NCBI GenBank assembly: GCA_946151075.1
Contig: OX267715.1
Location: 883,881-907,880 of the forward strand
Direction: 5' to 3'
Origin: Neobacillus sp. Marseille-Q6967
Lineage (GTDB): Bacteria; Bacillota; Bacilli; Bacillales; Cytobacillaceae
Length of the DNA: 24,000 nt
Shown: positions 4,347 through 24,000 of the stretch, piece by piece
How the letters are laid out: the number at the start of each line of letters is the position of its first letter
Numbering within the stretch: the stretch's first letter is position 1
Position numbers and translations under genes: made by a program
Notes under the pieces: model-generated
Seen by the model: the letters and a program-made list of their open reading frames with translations, nothing else
The model's database searches: none
What the model was told of the DNA's origin: nothing

Positions 4347-4379
4347 TCCTTTAATATGGTCCAGAGAGGCCAAAAAGGC
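4347..4379 (+). promoter_or_regulatory. PyrR binding loop (anti-antiterminator hairpin), site 1
   Basis: The sequence CCTTTAATATGGTCCAGAGAGGCCAAAAAGG contains the conserved PyrR recognition core UCCAGAGAGGC. The upper stem is GG/CC and the lower stem CCUUU/AAAGG. Confidence 0.7.
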
Positions 4380-4417
4380 GAAAATAAAATTCGTACATAA
4401 ATGTCCGAATCTATTAG

Positions 4418-4458
4418 TACCCTTTTGTCCTTTTTGGATGGAAGGGTATTTTATTTTG
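4418..4458 (+). terminator. Leader attenuator (intrinsic terminator) downstream of PyrR site 1
   Basis: The stem GTACCCTT / AAGGGTAT is followed by TTTATTTTG. It sits between the PyrR site and the start codon of the MFS gene. Confidence 0.7.
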
Positions 4459-4465
4459 CCTATGT

Positions 4466-4500
4466 ATCTTTTAATCAAAGTCCAGTGAGGCTTGAAAGGA
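4466..4500 (+). promoter_or_regulatory. PyrR binding loop, site 2, overlapping the Shine-Dalgarno sequence of the MFS gene
   Basis: The sequence TCTTTTAATCAAAGTCCAGTGAGGCTTGAAAGGA carries the variant core UCCAGUGAGGC with upper stem AAG/CUU. The 3' arm GAAAGGAG is the SD for the ATG at 4510. Confidence 0.6.
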
Positions 4501-4509
4501 GAATCATCA

Positions 4510-5730
4510 ATGAATTATCAGAAAAAAACAGTAGTAGCATCCACTGCAGGGTTAACGTTAGAGGGCATGGATATCATGTTCATATCGTTTGCTATGTCCA
4601 TGATTATTGCAGAATTCAACATTGATATGGCAACCGGCGGACTAATTTCTTCTATTACCAACTTAGGAATGCTATTCGGGGGTATTCTTTTCGGGATACT
4701 AGCTGATAAATTTGGAAGAGTTAAAGTTTTTACTTATACCATTATATTGTTTGCTATAGGGACTGCACTTACTGGATTAGCCACAAATATTGAACAGGTT
4801 TATATTTTTAGGTTTATTGCAGGATTAGGTGCAGGTGGAGAATACGGAATTGGAATGGCACTAGTCGCTGAAGCATGGCCAAAAAATAAACAAGGACGAG
4901 CTTCTTCTTATGTGAGTGTTGGTGCTCAATTTGGTGTAATCCTAGCAGCATTACTAAGTGCATTGATTCTTCCGACTTGGGGATGGAGAGGATTATTTTT
5001 CATCGGAGCTCTCCCGGTTATCTTTGCCTTTATTGTCCGCAAGAACTTAGATGAGTCACCAGAATGGCTTGCATCACAAAAGGTTAAAAAGCAGAAACGA
5101 AATCAAGGAAATTTAAAGGAATTATTTTCGACTCGAAAAACAGCCCTAACTACGGCAGCATTAGCCATCATGGCAACGGTTCAAATTGCCGGCTATAACG
5201 GTTTGATGATCTGGCTTCCATCTATGCTTCAACAATCCCAAGGCTTGTCGGTTTCAAGTTCTGCTCTTTGGACAATTAGTACAGCGGTCGGAATGATTGT
5301 AGGAATGCTGACTTTTGGACAATTTATGGATCGACTTGGAATGAAACGGACGTATGGAATCTTCCTGCTTGCGTCAGCGGTAGCAGTCTTTTTATACTCA
5401 TATGCCTCTGGAAGCACAGGAGTTCTCATTGGAGGTGCCATCGTAGGATTCTTCTCAAATGGAATGTTCGCTGGTTACGGGGCCCTTATCAGCTACTACT
5501 ATCCAGTGGAAATACGTAGTACTGCAACGAACACGATTTTTAACTTTGGACGAGCGTTAGGGGGACTATCTCCAATCTTAGTTGGATTTATTTTAGAGAA
5601 TGCAAACGTAACGGTTGCGATGAGCTATCTAGCGATTCTTTATTGCATCTCGTTTATCGCGATGGTGAGTTTGAGAAAAGGTAAGGACAGCCGTAAACAA
5701 GAAACCATGACAACACTTAAAGCTGTATAA
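4510..5730 (+). CDS. MFS transporter (12 TM, sugar-porter/AAHS-like), predicted PyrR regulon member
   Basis: It has the MFS motifs GILADKFGRVKV (loop 2-3) and FRFIAGLGAGGEYG. The ATG at 4510 lies 8 nt after GAAAGGAG, and I judge the TTG at 4492 from the ORF track to fall inside the leader. Confidence 0.85.
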   Translation: MNYQKKTVVASTAGLTLEGMDIMFISFAMSMIIAEFNIDMATGGLISSITNLGMLFGGILFGILADKFGRVKVFTYTIILFAIGTALTGLATNIEQVYIFRFIAGLGAGGEYGIGMALVAEAWPKNKQGRASSYVSVGAQFGVILAALLSALILPTWGWRGLFFIGALPVIFAFIVRKNLDESPEWLASQKVKKQKRNQGNLKELFSTRKTALTTAALAIMATVQIAGYNGLMIWLPSMLQQSQGLSVSSSALWTISTAVGMIVGMLTFGQFMDRLGMKRTYGIFLLASAVAVFLYSYASGSTGVLIGGAIVGFFSNGMFAGYGALISYYYPVEIRSTATNTIFNFGRALGGLSPILVGFILENANVTVAMSYLAILYCISFIAMVSLRKGKDSRKQETMTTLKAV

Positions 5731-5967: not shown

Positions 5968-6249
5968 GTGAGCTTGATGCACACAGGTGATGAAGTTTTT
6001 ATTACGAAGACGGGAAAGAACTATCATTATTTTGATGATGACTGTCCCACGACTTCTAGAATTTTAAAAGGAAGAATCGCTGCGCAAAGAATCAAAGAAA
6101 CAGAAGCGATTGCGAAAGGTTATACATTATGCAGACATTGTGCCAAGGAGTATAAAGAAGATTTAGCCGAAAGAAAAGGATGTGGCACAGCGGCTCTTTT
6201 GTTTTTGGGAGCGGGCATCATTCTGCTGGCGAAACAATTATTGTTCTAG
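5968..6249 (+). CDS. Small Cys-rich protein with C-terminal membrane anchor (hypothetical)
   Basis: The spacing KTGKNYHYFDDDCP...GYTLCRHC resembles Ada-type metal-binding or zinc-ribbon-like modules. The C-terminal stretch GTAALLFLGAGIILLAKQLLF looks like a TM helix. An AGGAGA SD is present and the start could instead be the ATG at 5977. A terminator follows. Confidence 0.55.
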   Translation: MSLMHTGDEVFITKTGKNYHYFDDDCPTTSRILKGRIAAQRIKETEAIAKGYTLCRHCAKEYKEDLAERKGCGTAALLFLGAGIILLAKQLLF

Positions 6250-10611: not shown

Positions 10612-10639
10612 GGTCACCAATTATTGGTGGCTTTTTTTC
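10612..10639 (+). terminator. Intrinsic terminator of the kinase gene
   Basis: The stem GGTCACCAA / TTGGTGGC is followed by TTTTTTT. Confidence 0.7.
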
Positions 10640-10840
10640 ATTGGACTATTAATTCCCTTTGCTACTTCTCTAAATCGTAATATGAAAAACTAGTTCGTTA
10701 TACTACTCTATAAATCCAGAGCAAAAAATAGGGTGGTATTTTTAAAATAAATTACTGAATATTTAGAACTAAATCAACATACACATTACTATCTTCAAAA
10801 AATCCACAACATTTCACAGTACATCCCACAACTTAATTCA

Positions 10841-10859
10841 AAAATACCTTTGGTATTTT
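10841..10859. promoter_or_regulatory. Perfect 8-bp inverted repeat upstream of the BMC cluster (candidate operator or weak hairpin)
   Basis: AAAATACC-TTT-GGTATTTT lies 47 nt upstream of the SDR start. Direct repeats CCACAAC are also present at about 10804 and 10826. No protein-binding evidence is available. Confidence 0.25.
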
Positions 10860-10905
10860 GTTGTTTTTTAAATAAGCCCATTTAAAAAGGTGAGGAGCTG
10901 GTAAT

Positions 10906-11664
10906 ATGTTAAGTTCATTTCAAGGAAAAACGATAATTGTTACGGGTGGTAGTAAAGGAATAGGAAAAGGTATTGCTCGTGTATTTGCTAAAAATGGGGC
11001 AAATGTCGCTGTGGTAGCCCGTAATTTAGAGGCAGCTGAGGAATGTGCTTCCGAATTAAATGAGGAAAACACAAATGTAATGGCATTTACGGGTGACGTC
11101 CAAGATCGTGAATCAATGAAGGCAGTGGCACGACAGGTTTTTGAAAAATTTGGAAGTGTTGATGTGTTATGTGCAAACGCGGGAATTTTCCCTGCTGCTA
11201 ATCTTGAGGATATGACAAATGAAGATTGGGATACGGTCATGAATACCAATGCAAAAGGGACCTTTCACGCTGTTCAAGCCTGTATCCCATACTTAAAACA
11301 AGCGGAATACGGTCGTATTGTCATTACCTCATCCATTACCGGTCCTGTCACTGGATACCCTGGATGGTCTCACTATGCGGCAAGTAAGGCGGCACAATTA
11401 GGTTTTATGAGAACAGCAGCATTAGAGTTAGCCAGTCATCAAATTACAGTGAATGCAGTACTTCCGGGTAATGTACTAACGGAAGGATTAGAGGGCTTAG
11501 GAGACGATTATTTAACAGAAATGGCCTCTGCCATTCCGATGAAAAAGTTAGGCACCGTAGAAGATATAGGTTATGCGGCCCTATTCTTAGCCTCGAAAGA
11601 AGCAGGCTTTATTACGGGTCAAACAATTATAGTAGATGGCGGCCAAATACTGCCAGAAAACTAG
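10906..11664 (+). CDS. SDR family oxidoreductase (FabG-like), candidate aminoacetone / 1-amino-2-propanol dehydrogenase of the BMC pathway
   Basis: It has TGGSKGIGKG, NAG and a SHYAASKAA catalytic Tyr/Lys, with a GGTGAGGAG SD. It is the first gene of the co-directional cluster. Confidence 0.8.
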   Translation: MLSSFQGKTIIVTGGSKGIGKGIARVFAKNGANVAVVARNLEAAEECASELNEENTNVMAFTGDVQDRESMKAVARQVFEKFGSVDVLCANAGIFPAANLEDMTNEDWDTVMNTNAKGTFHAVQACIPYLKQAEYGRIVITSSITGPVTGYPGWSHYAASKAAQLGFMRTAALELASHQITVNAVLPGNVLTEGLEGLGDDYLTEMASAIPMKKLGTVEDIGYAALFLASKEAGFITGQTIIVDGGQILPEN

Positions 11665-11716
11665 ATATCCTAAGTATATAAGGTTCCCATTCATTGCAAG
11701 GCAGGTGATAGCAGAT

Positions 11717-12493
11717 ATGTCTTTATCTTTTGAAGAACGGAAAACAACTATTATGGAATCTTTAGAAAAGGAAGAGAAAGTTCAGGTCCGGGTGCTGGCT
11801 AATATGCTTCAAGTTTCGGATGAAACGATTCGCCGTGATTTGGATCGTCTAGAAAAAGAGGGGTACTTGAAAAAGGTATATGGGGGAGCTGTCAAAACAA
11901 AGATTCATAGTTGGGAACTGCCTTTTGATGAGAAAACAATGATTAATCAAAGAGAGAAACAAGCCATTTGCAGAGCGGCAGCGAGTCTAGTGGAAGACGG
12001 TGACATCATCATGATAGGAAATGGTACCACTCCGTTAGAAATGGTTCCCTTTTTAGCGGATAAAAAGGATATTACTCTAATAACCCACTCTGTACCCGTT
12101 ATGCTTGGAGCTATGGATGTTTTTAAAGGCCGTGTTATTTTTATTGGCGGTGAGATCGAAAAAAATCAAAAATACACGAGCGGCCCTCTATCAGAGAGGA
12201 TGCTCGAATTGCTTCGTGCCAATAAAGCCTTTATTTGTGCAGGCGGCATTTCAACGCTTAATGGAATTACCGACTATGATATCAGCGGCTCGAGTATCTC
12301 GCGTAAAATGATGGAACGAGCTGAAGAGGTCATTATTTTGGCAGACCATACTAAGTTTGGAAAAACAACTTTTGCCCATATGTGCTCTTTAACAGATGCA
12401 TCTAGAATTATTACAGATCAATACTGTCCAAAGGAATGGAAACATATATTGGCTGAAAAAGATATTGATTTGTTGATCGCGGATGAGATTTAA
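11717..12493 (+). CDS. DeoR family transcriptional regulator
   Basis: The N-terminal wHTH (VLANMLQVSDETIRRDLDRLEKEGYLKKVYGGA) is followed by a DeoR C-terminal sugar-phosphate-isomerase-like sensor domain. I chose the ATG at 11717 (AGGTGA SD 8 nt upstream) over the track start at 11636, which overlaps the SDR gene. Confidence 0.85.
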   Translation: MSLSFEERKTTIMESLEKEEKVQVRVLANMLQVSDETIRRDLDRLEKEGYLKKVYGGAVKTKIHSWELPFDEKTMINQREKQAICRAAASLVEDGDIIMIGNGTTPLEMVPFLADKKDITLITHSVPVMLGAMDVFKGRVIFIGGEIEKNQKYTSGPLSERMLELLRANKAFICAGGISTLNGITDYDISGSSISRKMMERAEEVIILADHTKFGKTTFAHMCSLTDASRIITDQYCPKEWKHILAEKDIDLLIADEI

Positions 12494-12533
12494 TACTACA
12501 CATCAATAGAGTTATAGAAATGAGGAGAATAAT

Positions 12534-13796
12534 ATGATTGAATTCGGCAGTAAAAAAACGGTGATTGATCGATCCCTTCAATGGTGGAACCCGGGAAAAA
12601 CCAGTCAATGGCAAAAAGATGGTATTGATCTGGTAATGGGGGAAAGAGAAGGTTATTATTTTTACGATATGGAAGGCAAAAAGTTGATGGATGTCCATTT
12701 AAATGGAGGGACTTATAATTTAGGACACCGTAATCCTGAAATTATTGCCGCCCTGAAAGAAGCATTAGATGAGTTTGATATTGGAAATCATCATTTTCCT
12801 GCGATGACTCGCGCTCTCCTAGCGGAAAAGATGGCTGAATGTACACCGGACAGCCTTCATTATACGATATTATCGGCAGGTGGAAGTGAAGCGATTGACG
12901 TCGCTTTAAAATGCGCTAGATATGCAACCAAGCGGACCAAGATTGTTTCCATCATAAATGGTTATCATGGCCATACGGGGCTTGCTGTATCATTAGGAAA
13001 TGAACGTTACTCACGTCCGTTTTTGAGTGAAGGGGATCCTGCAGAGTTTCTTCATGTTCCATTCAATGATTTGGAAGCTATGGAGAGAGCCCTGATGAGT
13101 GAAGATGTCGCGTGTGTCATTATTGAGACGATCCCGGCAACCTATGGATTTCCTATGCCTGAAAAAGGATATATATCTGCTGTGAAAAGATTGTGTGAGA
13201 GGTATGGAACTTTATATATTGCAGATGAGGTACAAACAGGATTAATGAGGACCGGGAAGCTCTGGGGGATTGAACATTATGGGGTTGAACCAGATATACT
13301 CGTTACCTCAAAAGGTTTCAGTGGAGGAATTTATCCAATTGCAGCAACCGTTGTTAGTAAAAAAGCGGGGAATTGGATGAACGAGGATGGTTTTGCTCAT
13401 ATCTCAACTTTCGGCGGATCAGAGTTGGGCTGTATCGTAGCGATGAAGGTGTTAGAAATCTCTCAACGCAGGGAAGTTAAGCAAAATGTCGATTTTGTTG
13501 CCCGATATTTACGGACAGGATTAGAGATGATTAAGAAGCAATACCCTGATTTCTTCGTTGGTATTCGCCAATTAGGTGTCGTAATGGGTCTGGAATTTAA
13601 TCATCCAAAAGGGGCGGTCTATGTCATGCAGGAACTTTATAAAAATGGAGTATGGGCCATTTATTCCATGCTCGATAATAGAGTCCTTCAATTTAAACCA
13701 GGTTTGCTGTGTGATAAAGACTATTGTGATGAGTTATTATCAAAATGTGAAGACAGTATAAAGCAGGCAGCTAAAATGGCTTACAGCTATAGCTGA
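12534..13796 (+). CDS. Class-III aminotransferase-fold PLP enzyme, candidate amino-alcohol O-phosphate phospho-lyase
   Basis: It has SGGSEAIDVALK, DEVQTGLMRTGKLWG and the PLP lysine in TSKGFSGG, with a GAGGAG SD. Its position immediately upstream of an APH-family kinase matches RMM-type loci. Confidence 0.75.
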   Translation: MIEFGSKKTVIDRSLQWWNPGKTSQWQKDGIDLVMGEREGYYFYDMEGKKLMDVHLNGGTYNLGHRNPEIIAALKEALDEFDIGNHHFPAMTRALLAEKMAECTPDSLHYTILSAGGSEAIDVALKCARYATKRTKIVSIINGYHGHTGLAVSLGNERYSRPFLSEGDPAEFLHVPFNDLEAMERALMSEDVACVIIETIPATYGFPMPEKGYISAVKRLCERYGTLYIADEVQTGLMRTGKLWGIEHYGVEPDILVTSKGFSGGIYPIAATVVSKKAGNWMNEDGFAHISTFGGSELGCIVAMKVLEISQRREVKQNVDFVARYLRTGLEMIKKQYPDFFVGIRQLGVVMGLEFNHPKGAVYVMQELYKNGVWAIYSMLDNRVLQFKPGLLCDKDYCDELLSKCEDSIKQAAKMAYSYS

Positions 13797-13816
13797 TAAG
13801 AGGGGAGTCTGGAAAT

Positions 13817-14830
13817 ATGAGTAATTCCTTCGTGGACCCACTACAAGAATCGATAGCAAAATTTAATCAAATTGCCAATACAGCCATTGGCTGCTATCCA
13901 TTATTATCAAAAGCTGTGATTCAACTATTAAACTACTCTGAAAATGCAACCTACCTAGTAAAAAGGCTAGGTACGAATGAAAAATATATACTACGCGTCG
14001 GCCGTCCTGGATACCACACGAAAACAGAAGTTGAGAGTGAACTTGAATGGTTGAAGTCGATTCATAAGCATTCGAATATACAGGTTTCACTGCCTATTTT
14101 AGGAGGAAATGGCGAATATATTCAAGCCCTAAATCATGAAAATGAATCCTATTATTGTACACTTTTTACCTTTTTAGAAGGAGAAGCCCCAAACGAAGAG
14201 AACGAAACCGAACTTATCAGCCAATTTGAAAAGCTTGGTGAGATTACAGCCCAACTGCACAATCATAGTATCAAGAACTGGGATGAACTTAGTCGAGTTC
14301 AGCGGTTAACATGGGATTACGAAACGGTCTTAGGACCATCTCCAAAATGGGGAAAATGGCAGGATGGTTTGGGGATGACGCCTGAACGTGAGGAATTATT
14401 CACGAAAGTTGCCAAAAAAATTAAAAACAGGTTAGAGCAATTCGGTAAAGGGTCCAATCGTTTTGGCTTGATCCACTCCGATTTACGTCTTGCCAATTTA
14501 CTAGTGGAACGTGACCAAATTAAAGTGATTGACTTTGATGATTGTGGATTTGGATGGTACCTATATGATCTAGCAACTTCTATAAGCTTTATCGAACATA
14601 AACCATATGTACCTGAACTAATCCAATCTTGGTTAAAAGGGTATCAAAAAATTCGCGCTCTTTCCAATGAGGAGAAACAAGAAATTCCTACTTTTATTTT
14701 GATGCGAAGACTCCAGTTAATTGCTTGGGTTGGCAGCCGAGATAACGAAACAACACGAGAATTAGGAAGTAATTTTACCGTGGAAACCGATGATTTGGCA
14801 AAAAAATACCTGCTTGAAGGAACAATATAA
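13817..14830 (+). CDS. APH (aminoglycoside phosphotransferase-like) family kinase, candidate amino-alcohol kinase
   Basis: It has the Brenner motif HSDLRLANLL and the DFD metal-binding motif VIDFDDCGFGW. Confidence 0.8.
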   Translation: MSNSFVDPLQESIAKFNQIANTAIGCYPLLSKAVIQLLNYSENATYLVKRLGTNEKYILRVGRPGYHTKTEVESELEWLKSIHKHSNIQVSLPILGGNGEYIQALNHENESYYCTLFTFLEGEAPNEENETELISQFEKLGEITAQLHNHSIKNWDELSRVQRLTWDYETVLGPSPKWGKWQDGLGMTPEREELFTKVAKKIKNRLEQFGKGSNRFGLIHSDLRLANLLVERDQIKVIDFDDCGFGWYLYDLATSISFIEHKPYVPELIQSWLKGYQKIRALSNEEKQEIPTFILMRRLQLIAWVGSRDNETTRELGSNFTVETDDLAKKYLLEGTI

Positions 14831-14860
14831 TATCTGACAGTTGTACAGGTGGTGGAAAAG

Positions 14861-15256
14861 ATGGATGTCAAATTAGTAGAAGAGATTACCAGATTAGTAT
14901 TGTCTAAGTTGGAAGAATCCTCAGAACCAACTTTAAACTTCGACTATCCTCCTCTTACTGAAGAGGAAGTTAAGGAGTGGAATGAGATTTCTTCGGCTAT
15001 TATGTTTTCGAAAGGAACAAATGATGTTCCTTCCTATTTAGCCCCACTGACGAACGAAGAATTAAAAATGTGGAATGTCTTATCTGACAGAATTGGATTT
15101 AAAAAGAGCGTTAATTTTTCGAGTGTGGCAGAACAATCTGGCTACCGTCCACTTACGGACAAGGAGTTAAAAGACTGGAATGATTTGGGGAAGAAAAGGG
15201 TTGTTCGGGTAAGAAATTCTAAACATGGCGAAGTAAAATTTTTTCAACATCAATAA
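14861..15256 (+). CDS. Small BMC-associated protein: encapsulation-peptide-like N-terminal helix plus three PLTxxExKxWN repeats (unknown function)
   Basis: The N-terminus is MDVKLVEEITRLVLSKLEE. The repeats are PPLTEEEVKEWNEI, APLTNEELKMWNVL and RPLTDKELKDWNDL. The ATG at 14861 follows AGGTGG by 9 nt, and the track start at 14849 is a less likely GTG. Confidence 0.65.
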   Translation: MDVKLVEEITRLVLSKLEESSEPTLNFDYPPLTEEEVKEWNEISSAIMFSKGTNDVPSYLAPLTNEELKMWNVLSDRIGFKKSVNFSSVAEQSGYRPLTDKELKDWNDLGKKRVVRVRNSKHGEVKFFQHQ

Positions 15257-15280
15257 TAGGGTGAATGAAAGGAGAGAGGA

Positions 15281-16819
15281 GTGATCCCAATTATTGAGTT
15301 TGATCTTGACTTGAAATCAATCCAAGAGATGAGAGATGTGGTAAAAAAAGCAAAAGAAGCACAAGCAAAGTTTCAGTATTTTTCACAGGAACAGGTAGAC
15401 CAAATCGTAAAACATGTGGCAGAAACAGCCTATAAGAAATCTGATATATTGGCCCAAATGGCGGTAGAGGAAACAGGAATGGGCGTTGTTGAACATAAAA
15501 AGATCAAAAACGAACTGGGCTCGATGGGTGTCTATGAATCTATTAAAGATGAGAAGACAGTCGGAGTGATCGGGTCAGATTCAAAGAGGAAAATAACGGA
15601 AATTGCTTATCCATTTGGCATCATTGCAGGGATTATCCCTACGACTAATCCTACTTCTACTGCTATTTTCAAGACTCTTATCTCACTAAAGACAAAAAAT
15701 GCTATTGTCGTAAGCCCTCATCCTTCTGCGGCCAAGTGTACAGTAGAAGCATTAAAAATTTGTTCACAGGCTGCTACTGAAGCTGGTGCTCCGGAAGGCG
15801 TAATTGGCTGGATGACCAAACCAACCATGTCAGCAACAACGGAACTTATGCACCACAAGGATATCAATTTAATTTTAGCAACGGGCGGAGGCGGTTTGGT
15901 TCGAGCTGCGTACAGTTCAGGAAAACCGGCATACGGTGTTGGGCCTGGAAATGTGCCGGTCTACATTGACAGGTCAGCCGACGTAAAACAGGCAGTCAGA
16001 ATGATTATTGATAGTAAATCCTTTGATAATGGAACCATTTGTGCGACTGAGCAATCTATTGTCGTTCATAAGAATATCAAAGAAATGACACTTAGAGAGT
16101 TAAAGAATAATGGCGGGTACTTATTAAATGAATCAGAAAAGGCAAGGGTTGAAGACGTTATATCTCCAATCAGGGGTAAGCTGAACCCAGCAATAGTGGG
16201 CAAAACCGCAGAAATTATTGCATCCATGGCAGGTATTCATGTTCCAGAAGGAACCCGTGTATTAATTGCCGAGGAGGATTTAATCGGAAAAGAAATACCA
16301 TTTTCCATTGAAAAACTATCTCCTATCTTAGGTTTCTATACAGCCAGTCATGTAGATAAGGGGTTAGAAATATGTCAGGGGTTATTAGATATTGGCGGAA
16401 GAGGGCATAGTCTCGCTCTTCATACGAATGATGAAGAAGTAGCCAAGCGGTTTGGCCTAGAAATGCCCGTTTCGCGGATTTTGGTCAATACCTTGGCATC
16501 CATCGGTGCAGCTGGAGCAACAACGGGGTTAACCGCTTCGTTAACACTTGGTTGTGGATCGTTTGGCGGGAATATAACCGGAGATAACATCACCGCTCGA
16601 CATTTAATTAATATAAAACGTATTGCGTATGGAATAAAGGATGTTAGCTTACCAAAGGCATTACAATCTAATAGAGGTAGAGTGGAAAAAGAATCGGCCA
16701 GTGTTGATGGTATAGTAGAACAGGTCTTAAAAGAAGTAAATGACAAAACACCTGGAATTAATTCGGACTTGATTGCAGAATTAGTTAAAAACGTCATGGC
16801 GCAGTATCAAAAACAATAG
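15281..16819 (+). CDS. CoA-acylating aldehyde dehydrogenase (PduP/EutE class) with C-terminal extension carrying two encapsulation-peptide-like helices
   Basis: It has IIPTTNPTST and a catalytic Cys in GTICATEQS. The GTG start follows AAGGAGAGAGGAG. The C-terminal tail contains ...SVDGIVEQVLKEVNDK...NSDLIAELVKNVMAQYQKQ. Confidence 0.85.
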   Translation: MIPIIEFDLDLKSIQEMRDVVKKAKEAQAKFQYFSQEQVDQIVKHVAETAYKKSDILAQMAVEETGMGVVEHKKIKNELGSMGVYESIKDEKTVGVIGSDSKRKITEIAYPFGIIAGIIPTTNPTSTAIFKTLISLKTKNAIVVSPHPSAAKCTVEALKICSQAATEAGAPEGVIGWMTKPTMSATTELMHHKDINLILATGGGGLVRAAYSSGKPAYGVGPGNVPVYIDRSADVKQAVRMIIDSKSFDNGTICATEQSIVVHKNIKEMTLRELKNNGGYLLNESEKARVEDVISPIRGKLNPAIVGKTAEIIASMAGIHVPEGTRVLIAEEDLIGKEIPFSIEKLSPILGFYTASHVDKGLEICQGLLDIGGRGHSLALHTNDEEVAKRFGLEMPVSRILVNTLASIGAAGATTGLTASLTLGCGSFGGNITGDNITARHLINIKRIAYGIKDVSLPKALQSNRGRVEKESASVDGIVEQVLKEVNDKTPGINSDLIAELVKNVMAQYQKQ

Positions 16820-16836
16820 GGGTTGAGCATTGTCAC

Positions 16837-17336
16837 AGTTTGTTGCGGATAACAAGAAATACTCTTGGATGGGGCGAAATACTCTCGGATGGGGCGAAAT
16901 ACTCTCGGAAGGCGAGAAATACTCTCGGAAGGCGAGAAATACTCTCGGATGGGGCGAAATACTCTCGGAAGGCGAGAAATACTCTCGGAAGGCGAGAAAT
17001 ACTCTCGGATGGGGCGAAATACTCTCGGAAGGCGAGAAATACTCTCGGAAGGCGAGAAATACTCTCGGATGGCGGAAAATACTTGCGGATGGCGGAAAAT
17101 ACTTGCGGATGTCGGAAAATACTTGCGGATGTCGGAAAATACTTGCGGATAGCGGAAAATACTTACGGATGGCGGAAAATACTTACGGATGGCGGAAAAT
17201 ACTTGCGGATGGCGGAAAATACTTGCGGATAGCGAGAAATACTAGCGGATAGCAAGAAATACTGGCGGATGGCGAGAAATACTGGCGGATAGCAAGAAAT
17301 ACTGGCGGATAGCGAGAAATGCTCTCGGCTAGCACA
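16837..17336. repeat. Array of about 24-25 tandem 20-bp direct repeats (consensus AAATACTnnCGGAnnGCGnn) inside the BMC operon
   Basis: Units start every 20 bp from 16857 to 17317, preceded by a degenerate unit at 16837. Sub-families occur in blocks: ACTCTCGGATGGGGCG and ACTCTCGGAAGGCGAG first, then ACTTGCGGATGGCGGA, then ACTGGCGGATAGCRAG. An exact 60-bp higher-order repeat occurs three times across 16877-17056. No stop codon occurs in any forward frame for about 300-400 bp. Confidence 0.95.
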
Positions 17337-17358
17337 CAAAAATTAGGAGGAATGTTAA

Positions 17359-17643
17359 ATGGCTATTAATGGTGCACTTGGGATGATTGAAACTAGAGGA
17401 TTGGTCGCTTCCTTGGAAGCAGCAGATGCGATGGTCAAGGCCGCAAATGTAAATTTAGTGGGAAAAGTTCATGTTGGCGGAGGGATCGTAACTGTACTTG
17501 TAACAGGGGACGTAGGGGCAGTAAAAGCCGCAACTGAGGCAGGTAGTGAAGCGGCACAACGTGTGGGTGAGATTCTCTCCGTTCACGTCATTCCAAGACC
17601 ACATAATGAACTCCAAATGATTTTACCGAAATTTGAGGGATAA
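17359..17643 (+). CDS. BMC-H shell protein (PduA/EutM type hexamer, single Pfam BMC domain)
   Basis: It has [41 protein letters not shown] and [18 protein letters not shown] is present. Confidence 0.9.
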
Positions 17644-17669
17644 TAGTTTAAAAGAGTGAGGCTCATAAG

Positions 17670-18326
17670 ATGATTAATCTAAACTCACAACGGATTGTCG
17701 AAGAGGTGTTAAAGCAGCTGCAGGAAAGAATGAATTCAAAAACCGAAACCCCCATTGGAGTTTCCGCCCGGCATTGCCATTTTAATGAAAAAGATTTAGA
17801 AACCCTATTTGGAAAAGGTTATCAACTTACGAAAAAGACAGATTTATTGCAGCCAGGGCAATTTGCGGCAAACGAAACCGTTACGATTGCGGGGCCAAAA
17901 GGAAGTATTGAGAGAGTGAGGGTACTTGGGCCTCTAAGGAACGCAACCCAAGTAGAAGTAAGTCAAACAGATGCGATGAAACTTGGGCTGAATCCCCCGA
18001 TACGAGAGTCGGGAAATTTACAGGGTTCTTCGCCCATTACCATTATTGGTCCAAAAGGGAGTATTTACCTTGAAGAAGGGTTGATTATTGCTCAAGCACA
18101 TATTCATATGCCGCCTGATGTTGCACGGCAGCTACATGTACAAGACGGGGATTATATAAAAGTGGAAATAGATAATCCGATACGCCCAATATCTTTTGAG
18201 AAAGTAAGGATAAGAATCTCGTCTAAATATGTATTGGAAATGCATATCGATACGGATGAAGCCAATGCGGGTTTTATCAAAAGCGGACAAAAAGGAAAAA
18301 TCATTAATGCAGGCAAAATCCTATGA
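17670..18326 (+). CDS. pduL: Phosphate propanoyl/acyl-transferase PduL (PTAC) with N-terminal encapsulation-peptide-like helix
   Basis: It shows the duplicated PduL fold signature: GVSARHCHF..., VRVLGPLR, AQAHIHMPPD and LEMHIDTDEANA. The N-terminus is NSQRIVEEVLKQLQERM. Confidence 0.85.
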   Translation: MINLNSQRIVEEVLKQLQERMNSKTETPIGVSARHCHFNEKDLETLFGKGYQLTKKTDLLQPGQFAANETVTIAGPKGSIERVRVLGPLRNATQVEVSQTDAMKLGLNPPIRESGNLQGSSPITIIGPKGSIYLEEGLIIAQAHIHMPPDVARQLHVQDGDYIKVEIDNPIRPISFEKVRIRISSKYVLEMHIDTDEANAGFIKSGQKGKIINAGKIL

Positions 18327-18979
18327 TCAATAAAGAATTGATTGAAGAAATCGTTAAAGAAATCCTGCGGAAAATCGATTCTCCCATAAAAAACAAACTT
18401 CTTGTAAATCATCGAGGTATGGAAAAAGACCTTGAATCAATCGAATGGTTAAAGAGATACTGGCATGTAGTAGAGTTGACCAATGCGAATGAACATATCC
18501 CCCCATCTAGTCAAAATGCAGTCTTTTTAGAAGTAGACCAGGATTTATTTGTAAAGGCGGCTCTTGGAATTACTGATACGAAAGAGAGTCTACTCTTTTC
18601 AAAAATATTGCTTCACGGGATGCAAATTGATTTTATCCTTATTGACTCCTTATGGCGGGCTCTGAATGAAACTAATTCGCATACAAATAAGAGGTATTTA
18701 AAGATGTTATTAGGCTATCAAAATCAACTTAGTAATTTTGGGGTCCGCTTTTTTCCATCTTGCCACTATATAGTACCTGACCAAAAGAGTCCTAACATGA
18801 TAGGAGCCGAGTATCAAGAAAAATTGTTAACCAAAGCGGTAATTGATGGATGGAAAAAGGACTCCATCACAGTTAAGAGTAACACGATTATCACCCCAAT
18901 GGCCCGAGAGGCGGCAAAAGAAAGGAAGATTACTATATTAAGGGGTGAGGTAAATGACGAAAGCGTTAGGAATGATTGA
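18323..18979 (+). CDS. BMC-associated protein of unknown function with encapsulation-peptide-like N-terminus
   Basis: The ATGA overlap with the pduL stop indicates translational coupling. The N-terminus is MINKELIEEIVKEILRKI. The C-terminal ITPMAREAAKERKITI resembles a motif I associate with uncharacterised proteins found after pduL/eutD in Firmicute eut loci, from memory and unverified. Confidence 0.6.
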   Translation: MINKELIEEIVKEILRKIDSPIKNKLLVNHRGMEKDLESIEWLKRYWHVVELTNANEHIPPSSQNAVFLEVDQDLFVKAALGITDTKESLLFSKILLHGMQIDFILIDSLWRALNETNSHTNKRYLKMLLGYQNQLSNFGVRFFPSCHYIVPDQKSPNMIGAEYQEKLLTKAVIDGWKKDSITVKSNTIITPMAREAAKERKITILRGEVNDESVRND

Positions 18980-19223
18980 AACGATTGGAGTGGCAACCTC
19001 GATAAAGGCCGCTGACGAGATGTTAAAGAATTCATTTGTCCAAATTGTTAAGCAGTCAGTGGCAGATGCAGCGCTTATTACAATAATCATTGAAGGAGAT
19101 ATCAGTTCCGTAAAAGCAGCCGTCGAGGCAGGTGTCTTGATAGCGAAACAAAATAAAGCGCTTGTTTCGTTTAATGTCATACCTCACCCTGAAAAAGGTA
19201 CCAATCACTTAATCAGAGATTAA
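18954..19223 (+). CDS. Divergent BMC-H shell protein (single BMC domain)
   Basis: It has ALGMIETIGVATSIKAADEMLKNSFV, EGDISSVKAAVEAG and FNVIPHPE. The ATG follows GGGGTGAGG and the gene overlaps the preceding gene by 26 nt. Confidence 0.85.
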   Translation: MTKALGMIETIGVATSIKAADEMLKNSFVQIVKQSVADAALITIIIEGDISSVKAAVEAGVLIAKQNKALVSFNVIPHPEKGTNHLIRD

Positions 19224-19381
19224 CAGATGGAATGAGCATTATAAATCAAGTAAGATAAATTTTTTTACTATAAATTATCTTAATTTTTAGAAATTTAAGG
19301 AGGTGAATAAGAAGAAACGCCTCTTTTAATTGTTATCTTGGCTGAAAGGAATGTAAATCTTTAAGGAGAGAAGGGAGAAAA

Positions 19382-20983
19382 ATGTCTAAAGCTGGTCTCG
19401 CTTTGTTTGAACAGAAATCTACTGGCGGTATTGCACGGCAAATTAGTCCAATTGATACCATGATTTATTCAGCAGCAAATCCAGGGCTGATGTTTGCACT
19501 TGTGTATATTATGTGGGCACCATTCCTCTATCCAGGTGCACACATGGTTTGGGCAATATTAGCGGTGGCACAGATGTTTATTATTGCCGGCCTTTATTGG
19601 TTGTTATCCGTATCAATGCCAAGGTCTGGCGGTGAATATATCTACATTAGCCGGATTCTCCATCCCTCGTTGGGGCTGATGGCAAGCTTTATGATTACCT
19701 TTACTTCCATCTCATGGACGGGAATTCTTTTAAACTGGATTATCAAATGGTCAATCGTTCAATTCTTCTATACGATTGCAATCATGAATGGAAATGACGC
19801 AACTTGGCTCAACTTAGCTGAATTTTTTAATAGTAATTGGATGCACGCCATTCTCGGAACAGCCATGCTGATTTTCATCTACTATATCTACTATAAGGGA
19901 ACAAAGTGGATGGTTAGATTGGCTTATTTAACATTGGGGGCTACATTAGTTGGAGCTGTTGTCTTTATTATCGCAAACTTAATCACAGGTCAAGGAACAT
20001 TTGCGGCTAATTTTACAGAGCTTACTGGTTTAGCTTATGACGATGTTATTAAATTGGCGGCAGCAGATGGCTATACCACCGAGTTTTTATTCGGTGCTAC
20101 TATGATGGCTGGTTCAACTTATATTATTCTCAATACACTTGGTTCTACCTTTGGAGCGAATCTAGCAGGTGAAGTTCGTAACGTTCAAAAGTCCCAGTTG
20201 CTAGCCTTATTTGGTTCACTTGCCATTTTAATGATCGTGTGGGCAATTTTTTATGCTATGTCCTATATTAACTTTGGAGATATTTGGTCCAATAGTTTGT
20301 ATTATCTTTATAATTCAGGTCATGAGGCATATCCGTTTAAGGGGTATGATCCATTTATCACAATCATGATTGGAATCATGACAAAGAATCCCATTTTTGT
20401 CGTGTTAATCGCCATCTGTTTTGCGATTGCAACATTCGGATCAGCTGCTGGATTAGGGTTTGGACCTTCCCGGAATATGGTAGCATGGTCCTTTGACCGC
20501 TTAATTCCTAGTAAGTTTATGGAGCTTAATAAAAAGACCAATTCACCAACATATGCTTTAAGAACGGTTATCATCGGTGCATGGTTCTTCTTAATGCTGG
20601 ATATTTTCGTGCCATCTTGGACGGCTAATATTGCTTACACCATTTTCACATGGTTCCTTGCATGGATCTTCCTCGGTATTGCAGGTATTGTATTTTCAAC
20701 AAGAAAGAAGATACTTTTTAACTCCTCCCCGCCTATCGTAAAAACGAAATTCTTAGGGATGCATTTAGTGACGATTTTAGGCTGGTTAACTCTCGCAATC
20801 AGCGTGTCGATTTGCTACTATCTCCTAATCCCGTTTTTTAGAGGAGATTTACCATTTACGATGATTGTCGTATCCCTTGGTTTAATGTTAATCCCGATTA
20901 TTATTTATTTTGTCATGAAACGTCACCATGCAAAGAAAGGAATCGATATTGATATTCAATTCCAGGAAATTCCTTCAGACTAA
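19382..20983 (+). CDS. APC superfamily amino acid/amine permease
   Basis: It has at least 12 TM helices and an APC-type SMPRSGGEYIYISR motif, with an AAGGAGAGAAGGGAG SD. Confidence 0.8.
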   Translation: MSKAGLALFEQKSTGGIARQISPIDTMIYSAANPGLMFALVYIMWAPFLYPGAHMVWAILAVAQMFIIAGLYWLLSVSMPRSGGEYIYISRILHPSLGLMASFMITFTSISWTGILLNWIIKWSIVQFFYTIAIMNGNDATWLNLAEFFNSNWMHAILGTAMLIFIYYIYYKGTKWMVRLAYLTLGATLVGAVVFIIANLITGQGTFAANFTELTGLAYDDVIKLAAADGYTTEFLFGATMMAGSTYIILNTLGSTFGANLAGEVRNVQKSQLLALFGSLAILMIVWAIFYAMSYINFGDIWSNSLYYLYNSGHEAYPFKGYDPFITIMIGIMTKNPIFVVLIAICFAIATFGSAAGLGFGPSRNMVAWSFDRLIPSKFMELNKKTNSPTYALRTVIIGAWFFLMLDIFVPSWTANIAYTIFTWFLAWIFLGIAGIVFSTRKKILFNSSPPIVKTKFLGMHLVTILGWLTLAISVSICYYLLIPFFRGDLPFTMIVVSLGLMLIPIIIYFVMKRHHAKKGIDIDIQFQEIPSD

Positions 20984-21013
20984 TAGATTCTATAAAAATA
21001 CTTTTCTTACGGG

Positions 21014-21955
21014 GTGAGGAAGTTGAAAATATTTTATGCTGGAGATTTACATGGCGGCGAAACAGCCTTTCGTAAATTTACCAATGCCGGTAAGTTTTAT
21101 CAGGCAGATTTAGTCCTTTATGGCGGGGATTTTACAGGAAAAATGGTCGTTCCTATTGTGGAAAATGGGGGCGTTTATACTTGCCGTTATTATGGTTCTA
21201 CCGTGAAGGTTAAAAAAGCAAAAGAACTCCCCGATCTAGAACGAAATCTTAGGGATGCAGGATTTTACCCATTCACCGTATCGGAAGAGAAGTTAAATCG
21301 CTTAAATGAAAGTGATGCAGAGCAAATCATTAAAGAAAAACAAATGGAAGTATTGAAACAGTGGATCGAATTAGCGGATGAAAGGTTTAAAGCAGCAGGA
21401 ATTCCCTGCATTATGATTCCTGGAAGCGTGGATGATTTTTATCTAGATGAGTTATTAAATTCAGGAAGTTATGTACAAAACGGCGATGGAAAAATTATTG
21501 AGGTAAATGGTTTTGAAGTCTTATCCATTGGCGGCGGTATACCAAGCGTATTTAAATACCCGCGGGAGTTCAGTGAGGAAGAACTTGCAGCAAAAATTGA
21601 AAATCTTGCCTCACAGGTAAAAGACATGAATAAATGTATATTTAATATCCATATCCCTCCCCACAATACTGACCTAGATCAAGGTACACTGTATGATGAG
21701 GAGTTAAAGCCGGTTCTTGATGGTGATTCCTTGGCAACCGCCCCAATCGGAAGTAAAGCGGTGCGTAATGCCGTTGAAAAATATCAGCCGCTACTCTCTT
21801 TACATGGGCACGTGCATGAAAGCAGGGGAGTAACTGCCTTGGGCAGGACGATCTGTATCAACGCAGGAACCGATTATGACCAAGGGCTGCTAAGAGGGGC
21901 ATTAATAGACATTGATTCAGGAGGAAATGTGTCCTATACATTAACAGCAGGTTAA
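21014..21955 (+). CDS. Calcineurin-like metallophosphoesterase
   Basis: The motifs GDLHG, GGDFTGK, a mid-protein IHIPPH and C-terminal HGHVHES are present. The start codon is uncertain (GTG at 21014 or TTG at 21023). Confidence 0.7.
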   Translation: MRKLKIFYAGDLHGGETAFRKFTNAGKFYQADLVLYGGDFTGKMVVPIVENGGVYTCRYYGSTVKVKKAKELPDLERNLRDAGFYPFTVSEEKLNRLNESDAEQIIKEKQMEVLKQWIELADERFKAAGIPCIMIPGSVDDFYLDELLNSGSYVQNGDGKIIEVNGFEVLSIGGGIPSVFKYPREFSEEELAAKIENLASQVKDMNKCIFNIHIPPHNTDLDQGTLYDEELKPVLDGDSLATAPIGSKAVRNAVEKYQPLLSLHGHVHESRGVTALGRTICINAGTDYDQGLLRGALIDIDSGGNVSYTLTAG

Positions 21956-21964
21956 GGAAGGAGT

Positions 21965-22870
21965 ATGAGTGTGGAAATTATTTACAAAGAAAATGCTATT
22001 CTTAAAATGTCACCAAACAATCGGCCAATCAAAAAAGTGAACCCTGGAACTGAAGTAGTCTTTGAAACATATGACTGTTTCAGTAATCAAATTAAGCGGG
22101 AGGATCAACCATTTAGCTCTGTGGGGTGGGATAAGATCAATCCGGCTACCGGCCCATTGTTTATAGAAGGGGCGGAACCTGGGGATATTTTAAAGGTTGA
22201 GATTATAGATATTAAGATAGATAGTAAAGGTGTCATGACAACTGCACCTAAGCATGGAGTACTTGGGGATATTGTAACGGGTGAAACAACGAAAGTAATC
22301 CCGATTCAAGAAGGGAAAGCTATCTTCAATGACAAAATTCATATTCCGATTAAGCCGATGATTGGGGTGATTGGCACTGCACCTGCAAGAGAAGAAATAC
22401 CGACTGGAACCCCAGGCGCTCATGGCGGCAATATGGATTGCAAGAAAATCATTAAAGGATCTTGTCTCTACTTACCGGTTAATGTTCCTGGTGCGCTTCT
22501 TTCCATGGGAGATTTACATGCTGTTATGGCTGACGGCGAAATTGTTATCTGCGGATTGGAGATTCCAGGGGAAGTTACAGTCAAAGTTGATGTTATAAAA
22601 GGAGAATCGCTTCCGCTTCCGATGCTTGTCAGCGAAGACAGATTGATTACCATTGCCTCTGCTGAAACATTGGATGAGGCAGCGAAGCAAGCAACCGTGA
22701 ATATGCATCAATTTTTAGTGGAGCAGCTTGGCCTCCCTATTGATGAAGCAGGAATGCTCTTATCTTTAGTGGGTGACCTAAGAATCTGTCAGGTAGTAGA
22801 CCCCTTAATGACAGCTCGGATGGAACTGCCACAGTGGATTTTAGATCAATACGATTACCAAGTAAAATAA
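21965..22870 (+). CDS. Acetamidase/formamidase (FmdA_AmdA) family amidohydrolase
   Basis: It has NPATGPLFIEGAEPGDIL, GGNMDCKKI and GDLHAVMADGEI. The ATG lies 9 nt after the previous stop, with an AAGGAAGGAG SD. Confidence 0.8.
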   Translation: MSVEIIYKENAILKMSPNNRPIKKVNPGTEVVFETYDCFSNQIKREDQPFSSVGWDKINPATGPLFIEGAEPGDILKVEIIDIKIDSKGVMTTAPKHGVLGDIVTGETTKVIPIQEGKAIFNDKIHIPIKPMIGVIGTAPAREEIPTGTPGAHGGNMDCKKIIKGSCLYLPVNVPGALLSMGDLHAVMADGEIVICGLEIPGEVTVKVDVIKGESLPLPMLVSEDRLITIASAETLDEAAKQATVNMHQFLVEQLGLPIDEAGMLLSLVGDLRICQVVDPLMTARMELPQWILDQYDYQVK

Positions 22871-22881: not shown

Positions 22882-22916
22882 GGTCAGTCCCCTAAGTGGG
22901 GCTGACCTATTATTTT
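22882..22916 (+). terminator. Intrinsic terminator closing the BMC-associated operon
   Basis: The stem GGTCAGTCCCC / GGGGCTGACC (one bulge) has loop TAAGT and is followed by TATTATTTT. Confidence 0.75.
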
Positions 22917-22937
22917 AAAAAATGAAGGAGTGAGGAA

Positions 22938-24000
22938 ATGAGAAAAAAGCGTGCACGTGAACTTGGATTACCATTCCCAGGGAAAACAGGAGAATGTAAT
23001 GCAATAACAGATGTTCCAGGCGTAGAAGTTGGGTTTACTACAATCATCGAAGGGGAAGGCCCGGTACAAATTGGTAATGGCCCTATTCGAACCGGTGTGA
23101 CGGCCATTTTACCACGAGGAAAAAAAGAAAAAATGCAGCCTATTTGGGCAGGTTTTTATAGCTTAAACGGGAATGGTGAAATGACGGGGGTACACTGGGT
23201 AAATGATGGAGGCTATTTTCTTAGTCCGATTTGTATTACTAATACCCATTCGGTTGGAATTGCCCATCATGCCACAACAAAATGGATGGTAAAACAATAT
23301 CAAGAACAATTCAAAAACGAACATTTATGGGCAATGCCAGTGGTTGCTGAAACCTATGATGGAGTTCTTAATGATATTAACGGACAGCATGTTACAGTAG
23401 AGCATGTTCTTTCAGCGATTGAAAGTGCAAAATCAGGCCCGGTGGCTGAAGGAAATGTTGGCGGCGGGACGGGAATGATTTGCTACGAATTTAAAGGAGG
23501 AACAGGCACATCATCGCGAGTAGTGACCATAAAAGGTGATCATCACCATATTGGTGTGTTAGTTCAAGCAAATTTTGGTTTGCGCGAATGGCTTTCTATT
23601 CTAGGTGTCCCGGTCGGTAAACATATGAGTAAAGATAAATTATTAGAAAAAGAGCAAGGTTCCATCATCGTTATTATTGGAACAGATATCCCTATGCTGC
23701 CCCACCAGCTTCAAAGGGTTGCCAAGCGTGCTGCGATTGGGATTGGGAGAAGCGGAAGTCCTGGAGGAAATAGTTCAGGAGATATTTTTCTAGCGTTTTC
23801 AACAGCAAACGAAATGGATATCCCTCAACTTTCAGGAGAGAAATTGACAATGGATTTTATCAACGATGAAGTGTTTGACCCTATTTATGAAGCGGTTTGC
23901 CAATCTATAGATGAATCCGTTGTAAATGCGATGCTGGCTGCAGAAACATTGACTACTGTTAAACCTTATGGGCAAAAAGTTCCTGCGCTTGATCATGACG
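22938..24000 (+). CDS. DmpA/P1 (peptidase S58) family aminopeptidase, 3' end outside the window
   Basis: It is not in the ORF track because it runs off the window. The ATG follows GAAGGAGTGAGG. The product begins MRKKRARELGLPFPGKTGECNAITDVPGVEVGFTT and contains GNVGGGTGMICYEFKGGTGTSS (autoprocessing/nucleophile region) and IIGTDIPMLPHQLQRVAKRA. Confidence 0.75.
   Translation, partial: MRKKRARELGLPFPGKTGECNAITDVPGVEVGFTTIIEGEGPVQIGNGPIRTGVTAILPRGKKEKMQPIWAGFYSLNGNGEMTGVHWVNDGGYFLSPICITNTHSVGIAHHATTKWMVKQYQEQFKNEHLWAMPVVAETYDGVLNDINGQHVTVEHVLSAIESAKSGPVAEGNVGGGTGMICYEFKGGTGTSSRVVTIKGDHHHIGVLVQANFGLREWLSILGVPVGKHMSKDKLLEKEQGSIIVIIGTDIPMLPHQLQRVAKRAAIGIGRSGSPGGNSSGDIFLAFSTANEMDIPQLSGEKLTMDFINDEVFDPIYEAVCQSIDESVVNAMLAAETLTTVKPYGQKVPALDHD

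Follow-up and report, generated by a model that had tools for sequence, protein, structure and literature searches.

A reduced EUT2x-type microcompartment operon of Neobacillus carrying a putative amino-alcohol signature module on a EUT2-type core

Which substrate does a bacterial microcompartment (BMC) locus serve when its enzymes resemble those of one known locus type and its shell that of another? This question is raised by a stretch of 24,000 nucleotides of Neobacillus sp. Marseille-Q6967 (assembly GCA_946151075.1, contig OX267715.1, positions 883,881 to 907,880), referred to below as the window, in which thirteen co-directional genes occupy positions 10906-22870 of the + strand. The initial annotation had described the locus as RMM/AAUM-like, after the locus type of Rhodococcus and Mycobacterium, and the layout that it reported was borne out, all 13 open reading frames (ORFs) being intact and flanked by two terminator-like hairpins. 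Its domain calls for enzymes, regulator, and shell proteins were confirmed for 11 of the 13 ORFs, which exceed the curated Pfam cut-offs; both BMC-domain proteins are above the PF00936 threshold (97.4 and 78.3 bits for a cut-off of 24.5). The Pfam search gave no family for the ORFs of 135 and 218 residues, designated U135 and U218. Comparison loci, numbered L0xx, were obtained by a genome scan for the kinase gene of the locus, which gave 80 loci, and others were fetched later. The conserved architecture is shared with L001-4, L007-9, L011, L013-15, L087, and L088. Together, the results make it probable that the window holds a DeoR-regulated, EUT2x-type operon, which combines an AAUM/RMM signature module with a EUT2C-derived core and is a reduced copy of its type.

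The signature module consists of three enzymes. The first gene of the operon (10906-11664, +) encodes a short-chain dehydrogenase/reductase (SDR; Pfam adh_short, 209.7 bits), a predicted orthologue of the RMM/AAUM 1-amino-2-propanol dehydrogenase. Its top matches in the Protein Data Bank (PDB) are the mycobacterial entries 3PK0, 6CI8, 6CI9, and 3RIH (E 3e-90 to 5e-88), followed by generic FabG proteins (3e-52), and it shares 49-64% identity with SDRs from RMM-type loci. We take 6CI8 and 6CI9 to be the RMM aminopropanol dehydrogenase, although the database label is only 3-oxoacyl-ACP reductase. The second enzyme (13817-14830, +; APH, 97.9 bits) is an APH-family kinase harboring the motifs HSDLRLAN and DFDD. 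Its best PDB relative is 6EF6, the (S)-1-amino-2-propanol kinase of M. smegmatis (E 8.9e-71 over residues 19-332, the next match being at 3e-16), of which it is a predicted orthologue. The third (12534-13796, +; Aminotran_3, 265.3 bits) is a class-III enzyme dependent on pyridoxal phosphate (PLP), abbreviated AT3 in gene orders, and a candidate amino-alcohol-O-phosphate phospho-lyase. It is 54-62% identical to its orthologues in actinobacterial and alphaproteobacterial RMM-type loci, which also have BMC-P, BMC-H, a BMC-T-like protein, and a GntR regulator.

The association between the kinase and the class-III enzyme is widespread. An orthologue of the latter (54-98% identity) was found inside the kinase locus, usually immediately 5' of the kinase gene, in 48 loci from Bacillota, Actinomycetota, Pseudomonadota, Acidobacteriota, Bacteroidota, and others, and 16 non-Bacillaceae loci additionally hold BMC-H and/or BMC-P genes. 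The gene content of L044, ordered AT3-AldDH-BMC-T-like-?-BMC-P-BMC-H-?-kinase-SDR-GntR-diol dehydratase (AldDH, aldehyde dehydrogenase), corresponds to the picture given of RMM2 (Axen et al., 2014; PMC4207490). The RMM/AAUM signature proposed in the initial annotation is therefore upheld by orthology for the SDR, the APH kinase, and the class-III PLP enzyme. PduL and the DeoR regulator fall outside it, since RMM1 has no phosphotransacylase (PTAC), no alcohol dehydrogenase, and a GntR regulator (Axen et al., 2014; PMC4207490), and since L044 has the same content. Judged from these protein relationships, the assignment to a BMC locus with a predicted amino-alcohol, AAUM-like chemistry is well supported.

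What the class-III enzyme does within this module can be read in two ways. For RMM1, a transamination of aminoacetone has been put forward, whose product methylglyoxal the AldDH would convert to pyruvyl-CoA (Axen et al., 2014; PMC4207490), and the closest solved relatives of the window enzyme are indeed transaminases (putrescine aminotransferase, E 1e-58). This route gives the tightly linked kinase no role, and the enzyme clears no NCBIfam equivalog cut-off, those of the transaminase models included. Moreover, its sequence VLQFKPGL aligns with TIRIEPPL of putrescine aminotransferase, and Gln (motif VLQ[FYW]KPG) is present in 48 of 48 kinase-linked orthologues at the position where the E. coli putrescine aminotransferase has Arg. 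In class-III transaminases, the keto-acid co-substrate is held through its carboxylate by this Arg. The partnership with the kinase and the Arg-to-Gln replacement favour a predicted phospho-lyase activity over the transaminase-to-methylglyoxal route, which we regard as very improbable. The phospho-lyase reading was reportedly also adopted for the RMM/AAUM class-III enzyme by Mallette and Kimber. Ethanolamine-phosphate phospho-lyase is a documented class-III lyase (PMC8154272). A second kinase-linked class-III subtype was seen in L040, L049, L060, L070, and L078, from Treponema, Bifidobacterium, Coriobacteriales, and Deltaproteobacteria metagenome-assembled genomes. Its members are 23-26% identical to the window enzyme and display LKIRPPL at the Arg position, Lys replacing the usual Arg; they may form a second, independently recruited lyase family.

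The remaining metabolic enzymes and the shell proteins point to another origin. The AldDH gene (15281-16819, +; Aldedh, 92.7 bits) encodes a CoA-acylating, EUT2-type (EutE) enzyme whose C-terminus bears an encapsulation-peptide-like extension. It scores 620.0 bits on TIGR02518, the model for the EUT acetaldehyde dehydrogenase, for a cut-off of 620.1, and it is 61-62% identical to its counterparts in the true EUT2C loci L005 and L006, versus 28-42% for the AldDHs of RMM loci. PduL (17670-18326, +; PTAC, 249.8 bits), with an N-terminal encapsulation-peptide-like helix, exceeds the cut-off of NF011652 (260.1 versus 209) and is near the Gram-positive EutD model (233 bits). The first shell protein, BMC-H1 (17359-17643, +; PF00936, 97.4 bits), is EutM-like, scoring 122.9 bits on NF012018 (EutM), under the cut-off of 133, and is 88-95% identical among EUT2x relatives. 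The second, BMC-H2 (18954-19223, +; PF00936, 78.3 bits), is 51-61% identical to its counterparts in close relatives. U218 (18323-18979, +), which has an N-terminal encapsulation-peptide-like helix, appears to be a divergent eut_hyp/PduM-like protein: six of six family members match TIGR02536 (eut_hyp, best E 1.4e-9) and PduM (5.5e-5), under the cut-offs, and a PDB profile search with U218 found no relative. By these similarities, the AldDH, PduL, the shell proteins, and U218 are assigned to Firmicute EUT2 stock. The locus thus appears as a chimera of signature enzymes orthologous to those of AAUM and a core and shell derived from EUT2C.

Two other loci bear on the relationship between the types. 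L006 (368-13833, Bacillus sp. V5-8f), a true EUT2C locus, has the order EutA-EutB-EutC-EutL-AldDH-BMC-H-Ldh-like, followed by SDR-DeoR-kinase-permease-metallophosphoesterase, with no class-III enzyme and no U135; it is possibly an intermediate between EUT2C and EUT2x. L088 (1-16009, ENA ERZ27286114) harbors two tandem cores with the order AldDH-BMC-H-PduL-unknown-BMC-P-BMC-H-Ldh. A DeoR-AT3-kinase-permease-HAD-U135 module lies between the core copies, and the SDR gene follows the second one. These tandem cores suggest that EUT2x originated by duplication of a EUT2 core.

The EUT2 character of the core raises the possibility of a B12-independent ethanolamine BMC, in which the kinase would act on ethanolamine, the PLP enzyme would be a phosphoethanolamine phospho-lyase producing acetaldehyde, and the SDR would be peripheral. 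The EutE-type AldDH and PduL would then process acetaldehyde exactly as in EUT2, in keeping with the AldDH score at the EUT cut-off (620.0 versus 620.1 bits), its 61-62% identity to EutE of true EUT2C loci, the proximity of PduL to the Gram-positive EutD model, the location of the SDR-DeoR-kinase-permease genes of L006 directly 3' of its EutABC locus, and the existence of the class-III ethanolamine-phosphate phospho-lyase mentioned above. Against an ethanolamine substrate, the SDR is kept in almost all members and is a close orthologue of a mycobacterial SDR group, which presumably includes the aminopropanol dehydrogenase. The nearest characterised relative of the kinase is likewise the aminopropanol kinase, and AldDH and PduL enzymes commonly take both C2 and C3 substrates. 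We therefore consider ethanolamine as an unlikely substrate and prefer an amino alcohol of the aminopropanol type.

Under the preferred aminopropanol reading, homology predicts the following route. The APC-family permease would import an amino alcohol or amino ketone, and the SDR would interconvert aminoacetone and 1-amino-2-propanol. The kinase would yield the O-phosphate, from which the class-III PLP enzyme would remove phosphate and ammonia to give propionaldehyde. The EutE-type dehydrogenase would capture the aldehyde as propionyl-CoA, and PduL would form the acyl-phosphate, regenerating CoA.

Is the locus of a new type? The initial annotation had left open whether this Firmicute variant was already catalogued. 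It is, as EUT2x (Sutter et al., 2021, Nat Commun 12:3809; PMC8217296, Suppl. Data 2), which comprises 24 loci, all from Bacillales and without EUT signature enzymes. EUT2x proteins are closest to EUT2C, and all but five loci are accompanied by another EUT2 locus; the catalogue terms the type "incomplete" and names no substrate (Sutter et al., 2021; PMC8217296). In the BMC-P tree of the same study, the label EUT2x (bmcType) is borne by proteins of 94 residues from Bacillus V3-13 and 91 residues from Pseudogracilibacillus DSM 28556. These organisms correspond to our L004 (Bacillus sp. V3-13) and L013 (Pseudogracilibacillus auburnensis DSM 28556), which both share the gene set of the window. The EUT2x label of the two organisms, together with their synteny with the window, largely refutes the claim of novelty: the window locus adds a new, reduced member to EUT2x as already catalogued. 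The literature searched gave no function for EUT2x and no mention of the strain.

The reduction is apparent from comparison with complete relatives. L003, L004, and L007-9 (as well as L013-15, L087, and L088, in which the genes are rearranged) harbor both a BMC-P vertex protein and an Ldh/Mdh-like dehydrogenase. In L003, BMC-P (14763-15047; PF03319, 91.8 bits) is located between U218 and BMC-H2, and the dehydrogenase (15467-16405; Ldh_1_N/C; TIGR01763, 464 bits) between BMC-H2 and the permease. Searching the window by tblastn with these two proteins gave best E values of 0.85 and 0.29, respectively, and BMC-P of the 'pastelBlue_eut2x' clade is not in the locus. At the position occupied by BMC-P in relatives, the U218 ORF of the window directly overlaps BMC-H2. 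No Ldh remnant was found between BMC-H2 and the permease, homology to relatives restarting 25-45 nt 5' of the permease gene. Among the 120 listed of 210 matches to L003 BMC-P, none was from the organism of the window. Pfam and tblastn searches detected no BMC-T and no BMC-P in the whole 24-kb window, and its ORFs include no EutA, EutB, or EutC, all three of which are present in the true EUT2C locus L006. The gene content of the window copy thus marks it as a reduced example of the type, with neither a vertex protein nor NAD recycling. Its closest genomic relatives are also incomplete: L001 (13348-14335) is without U218 and BMC-P, and L002 (13002-13765) is without PduL, U218, BMC-P, and Ldh. 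The three loci, as read from their genes, form a reductive series in one Neobacillus clade from which different core genes have gone. The absence of BMC-P and Ldh from the window implies either that a second BMC locus of the genome lends them or that the shells are open or defective.

The same observations could mean that the locus is a decaying remnant, in which a soluble amino-alcohol pathway operates in the cytosol and the leftover shell genes build no functional compartment. In addition to the losses in the window, L001, and L002, the module is fully shell-less in L017 (7100-14100, Neobacillus massiliamazoniensis LF1), which has the order SDR-DeoR-AT3-kinase-U135-permease-phosphoesterase with no shell and no AldDH. 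Shell genes are missing from the vicinity of the kinase gene in about 50 of the 80 loci, and a 474-bp repeat array is inserted 5' of the shell genes in the window. Decay is at odds with the integrity of the ORFs (13 of 13) and with the conservation of BMC-H1, which is 94-95% identical to its counterparts in L001 and L002, compared to 74-77% for the kinase, a difference indicative of strong purifying selection on the shell protein. The encapsulation-peptide-like helices have also been kept, and the second EUT2 locus that accompanies all but five EUT2x loci is a possible supplier of missing parts (Sutter et al., 2021; PMC8217296). A non-functional remnant is in our opinion improbable, slightly more so than an ethanolamine substrate, and a reduced but maintained EUT2x operon is the preferred interpretation.

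How would the enzymes enter such a compartment? The initial annotation had attributed encapsulation-peptide-like helices to the two proteins without family, and both U135 and U218 were found to have their strongest amphipathic segment at the N-terminus. The strongest segment is also N-terminal in PduL (residues 6-19), and it is C-terminal in the AldDH (residues 475-488); examples are KLVEEITRLVLSKL, ELIEEIVKEILRKI, and VDGIVEQVLKEV. Such segments fit the usual pattern of encapsulation peptides. The class-III enzyme, the kinase, and the SDR display no terminal extensions relative to shell-less homologues. A C-terminal amphipathic helix of the PLP enzyme was considered as an encapsulation peptide and rejected, as it belongs to the normal fold and is present in shell-less homologues.

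The best candidate for bringing the phospho-lyase into the shell is U135 (14861-15256, +, with a likely start at 14861), for which no Pfam or NCBIfam family was found. Its sequence matches that of a hypothetical protein from Neobacillus sp. Marseille-Q6967 in nr at 100% identity. It contains a conserved N-terminal helix, three PLTxEE(L/V)KxWNxIS repeats, and a C-terminal VKFFxH motif; family members have two or three of the repeats. An exhaustive profile search of 1.84 billion proteins retrieved only 65 cluster representatives, all of 70-163 residues save one of 412, a false friend. The two weak members that were looked up, P0172 (E 2.6e-7) and P0189 (E 7.5e-4), are encoded directly 5' of an AldDH gene, in loci ordered DeoR-AT3-kinase-permease-HAD-U135-AldDH-shell. 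U135 therefore appears to define a small family confined to these loci and located directly 5' of AldDH. The AlphaFold2 model (pTM 0.20) shows four isolated helices with low-confidence linkers between them. Based on this architecture, in which an encapsulation-peptide helix precedes three flexibly linked repeat helices, we propose that U135 may act as a multivalent adaptor for cargo devoid of encapsulation peptides, in particular the signature enzyme. The U135 homologue of L017 has the encapsulation-peptide helix and two repeats but no C-terminal VKFFxH motif.

The permease, the two hydrolases, and the regulator complete the operon. The presumed substrate importer, an APC-family permease (19382-20983, +; AA_permease_2, 55.4 bits), is 83-94% identical to its counterparts in relatives, including the shell-less L017. 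The metallophosphoesterase (21014-21955, +; Metallophos, 29.3 bits), for which a PDB profile search found no relative, is 78-85% identical in L001-4, L006-9, and L017. The last gene (21965-22870, +; FmdA_AmdA, 122.9 bits) encodes an acetamidase/formamidase-family hydrolase related to PDB 2II1 (E 3e-95) and 80-89% identical in L001-4, L007, and L008. The two hydrolases, initially annotated as extra, are thus conserved within the module, at identities of 78-89% among relatives. Homologues of the acetamidase-family enzyme (34-35% identity) are also present in the actinobacterial RMM-type loci L052, L066, and L067, so that this hydrolase accompanies the amino-alcohol module in different phyla. A HAD hydrolase gene lies between the permease and U135 genes in the Lysinibacillus-like sub-architecture (L087, 5670-6404; L088, 9215-9988), and no metallophosphoesterase was seen in these two loci. 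The presence of one hydrolase instead of the other may point to a needed phosphatase or phosphoesterase step.

The DeoR-family regulator (11717-12493, +; DeoRC, 154.4 bits; HTH_DeoR, 56.1 bits) scores under every NCBIfam equivalog cut-off. Its ORF opens at 11636, and 11717 is the likely start; the DeoR gene of the relative L081 has been called at 258 residues. A conserved leader precedes the SDR gene (10740-10905, +). Alignment A1 of 11 relatives revealed invariant blocks in the order GAATATT, CATACAnATTACTATC, TCCACAAC, CCCACAAC, and TGTTGTTTTTT, followed by the ribosome binding site; they include a -10-like TACTAT, two CCACAAC boxes approximately 22 nt apart, and TGT(T/G)GTTTTT. No Rfam match was found in the locus and the leader has no conserved consensus fold; a riboswitch or attenuator was accordingly rejected, and the boxes are read as DNA promoter and operator elements. 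The leader is likely to contain the promoter and a DeoR operator, as deduced from the conserved blocks. A DeoR half-site common to the palindrome AAAATACC-TTT-GGTATTTT and the repeat unit described below was considered and rejected, the palindrome not being conserved in relatives.

The spacing of the genes is mostly short, as initially annotated (-26 to +52 nt), with two exceptions, 158 nt between BMC-H2 and the permease and 539 nt between the AldDH and BMC-H1. The latter gap contains the large internal repeat mentioned in the initial annotation. The repeat is real (a 20-bp unit present 23.7 times, 90% matches; TRF score 416-500), and its non-coding nature had been missed. The 474-bp array (16855-17328), which displays 60-bp higher-order units on its left side, lies between the AldDH stop codon and the first shell gene and so splits the enzyme genes from the shell genes. 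No array was found in L001-L009. In the near relative L081, an array (6190-6220) starts approximately 40 nt past the AldDH stop codon, and the short-read contig ends inside it. Arrays of the same type, with the unit core AAATACTnnCGGAnnGC, are present at unrelated intergenic sites in four metagenome contigs that have no protein in common with the window (L082, 891-1282; L083, 782-830; L084, 1551-2495; L085, 3379-3469). The array is thus a member of a dispersed minisatellite family. In L083 and L085, it is located just 3' of a terminator. A structured RNA was rejected (fold z-score of -0.94), as was a coding function: although all three frames are open, the units are identical at the DNA level and their period of 20 bp is not divisible by three.

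The left boundary of the unit is a hairpin with a T-run (10612-10639, +) that ends a histidine-kinase gene; it was read directly as GGTCACCAATTATTGGTGGC then TTTTTTTC and was not in the output of the consensus terminator scan. The right boundary, found by that scan, is an intrinsic-terminator-like hairpin (22882-22907, +) with a 10-pair stem including seven G-C pairs, followed by a T-rich tail. Three features outside the unit were noted. Spo0A is encoded at 695-1468 (-), in agreement with the sporulating host initially proposed. A PyrR binding site was detected by Rfam at 4344-4454 (+; 68.1 bits for a gathering score of 54), directly 5' of an MFS transporter gene (4492-5730). Finally, an ORF located 3' of the right terminator (22936-24000, +), which starts MRKKRARELGLPFPGKTGECNAITDVPG and runs off the end of the window, appears to resemble the DmpA/S58-type aminopeptidases; downstream conservation is limited to the closest relatives L001 and L002 (85% identity).

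Several points weigh against the interpretation of the window as an amino-alcohol operon of a EUT2x compartment. Phospho-lyase activity is an inference even in Mycobacterium, and the activities of the Firmicute members are predictions. The AldDH and PduL are of the acetaldehyde, or EUT, type, so that a C2 substrate (ethanolamine) is conceivable. The proposed pathway leaves the metallophosphoesterase and the acetamidase-family enzyme unexplained. Without BMC-P and an NAD-recycling enzyme, the copy may form no working compartment, and the further core losses in L001 and L002 suggest decay in the clade. Lastly, the putative adaptor role of U135 is challenged by the conservation of a homologue in the shell-less L017.

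A broader proposal can be formulated for the type as a whole, to which we give tentative credence and which we hold to be doubtful, if less so than any of the rival explanations considered above. According to it, EUT2x would be, rather than an 'incomplete EUT' locus, a self-standing, cofactor-complete aminoacetone/aminopropanol BMC, built from a kinase/phospho-lyase module on a duplicated EUT2C core, with U135 recruiting the signature enzyme that has no encapsulation peptide. The substrate hypothesis preferred above for EUT2x already goes beyond the text of the catalogue. If the broader proposal is correct, U135 would provide CsoS2/CcmM-like cargo scaffolding, so far not described for a catabolic metabolosome, and the family is in any case a testable candidate for the entry of enzymes without encapsulation peptides into such a compartment. 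The RMM/AAUM systems pose a puzzle in that internal cofactor recycling is apparently absent. EUT2x has the same signature enzymes and PduL, to which complete members add an Ldh-type dehydrogenase, a combination that lends itself naturally to comparison in spore-formers amenable to genetics. The main interest of the window copy resides in the natural reduction series to which it belongs.

Comparison with known systems places the locus between several types. Like RMM1/AAUM and RMM2, it has orthologous SDR, aminopropanol kinase, and class-III PLP enzymes, an amino-acid-type permease, an acetamidase-family homologue (near L052, L066, and L067 in those types), and the same predicted chemistry. The RMM types are distinguished by GntR, the absence of PduL and of an alcohol dehydrogenase, their distribution in Actinobacteria and Proteobacteria, and AldDHs only 28-42% identical to that of the window, whereas the window has DeoR, PduL, a EUT2-type AldDH, U135 and U218, and two BMC-H genes as its only shell genes. 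With EUT2C of Bacillales, the locus shares the AldDH (61-62% identity), a PduL-type PTAC, a eut_hyp-like protein, and BMC-H, and complete EUT2x members additionally share BMC-P of the same clade and a pf02866-type dehydrogenase. In contrast to EUT2C, the window is without EutA, EutB, EutC, the EutL-type BMC-T, and B12-dependent chemistry, the kinase and PLP-lyase module standing in place of the signature enzymes. As in canonical metabolosomes, the AldDH and the PTAC carry encapsulation-peptide-like helices; unlike them, the window has neither an NAD-recycling alcohol dehydrogenase nor a pentameric vertex protein. Like CsoS2 and CcmM-CcmN, U135 is small and largely disordered, with repeated short motifs and a shell- or core-targeting element; the proteins are unrelated in sequence and belong to carboxysomes rather than a metabolosome, so the likeness is one of functional analogy only. 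The closest match is with EUT2x itself, as judged by the Bacillaceae host, the absence of EutABC, a core nearest to EUT2C, the RMM1-type SDR, and gene-by-gene synteny with L004 and L013. The window copy departs from complete EUT2x members by the absence of BMC-P and the Ldh/Mdh-type dehydrogenase and by the addition of the 474-bp array. The catalogue names no signature enzyme for EUT2x, whereas in our analysis the kinase and the class-III PLP enzyme form its signature pair and U135 is identified as a type-specific component.

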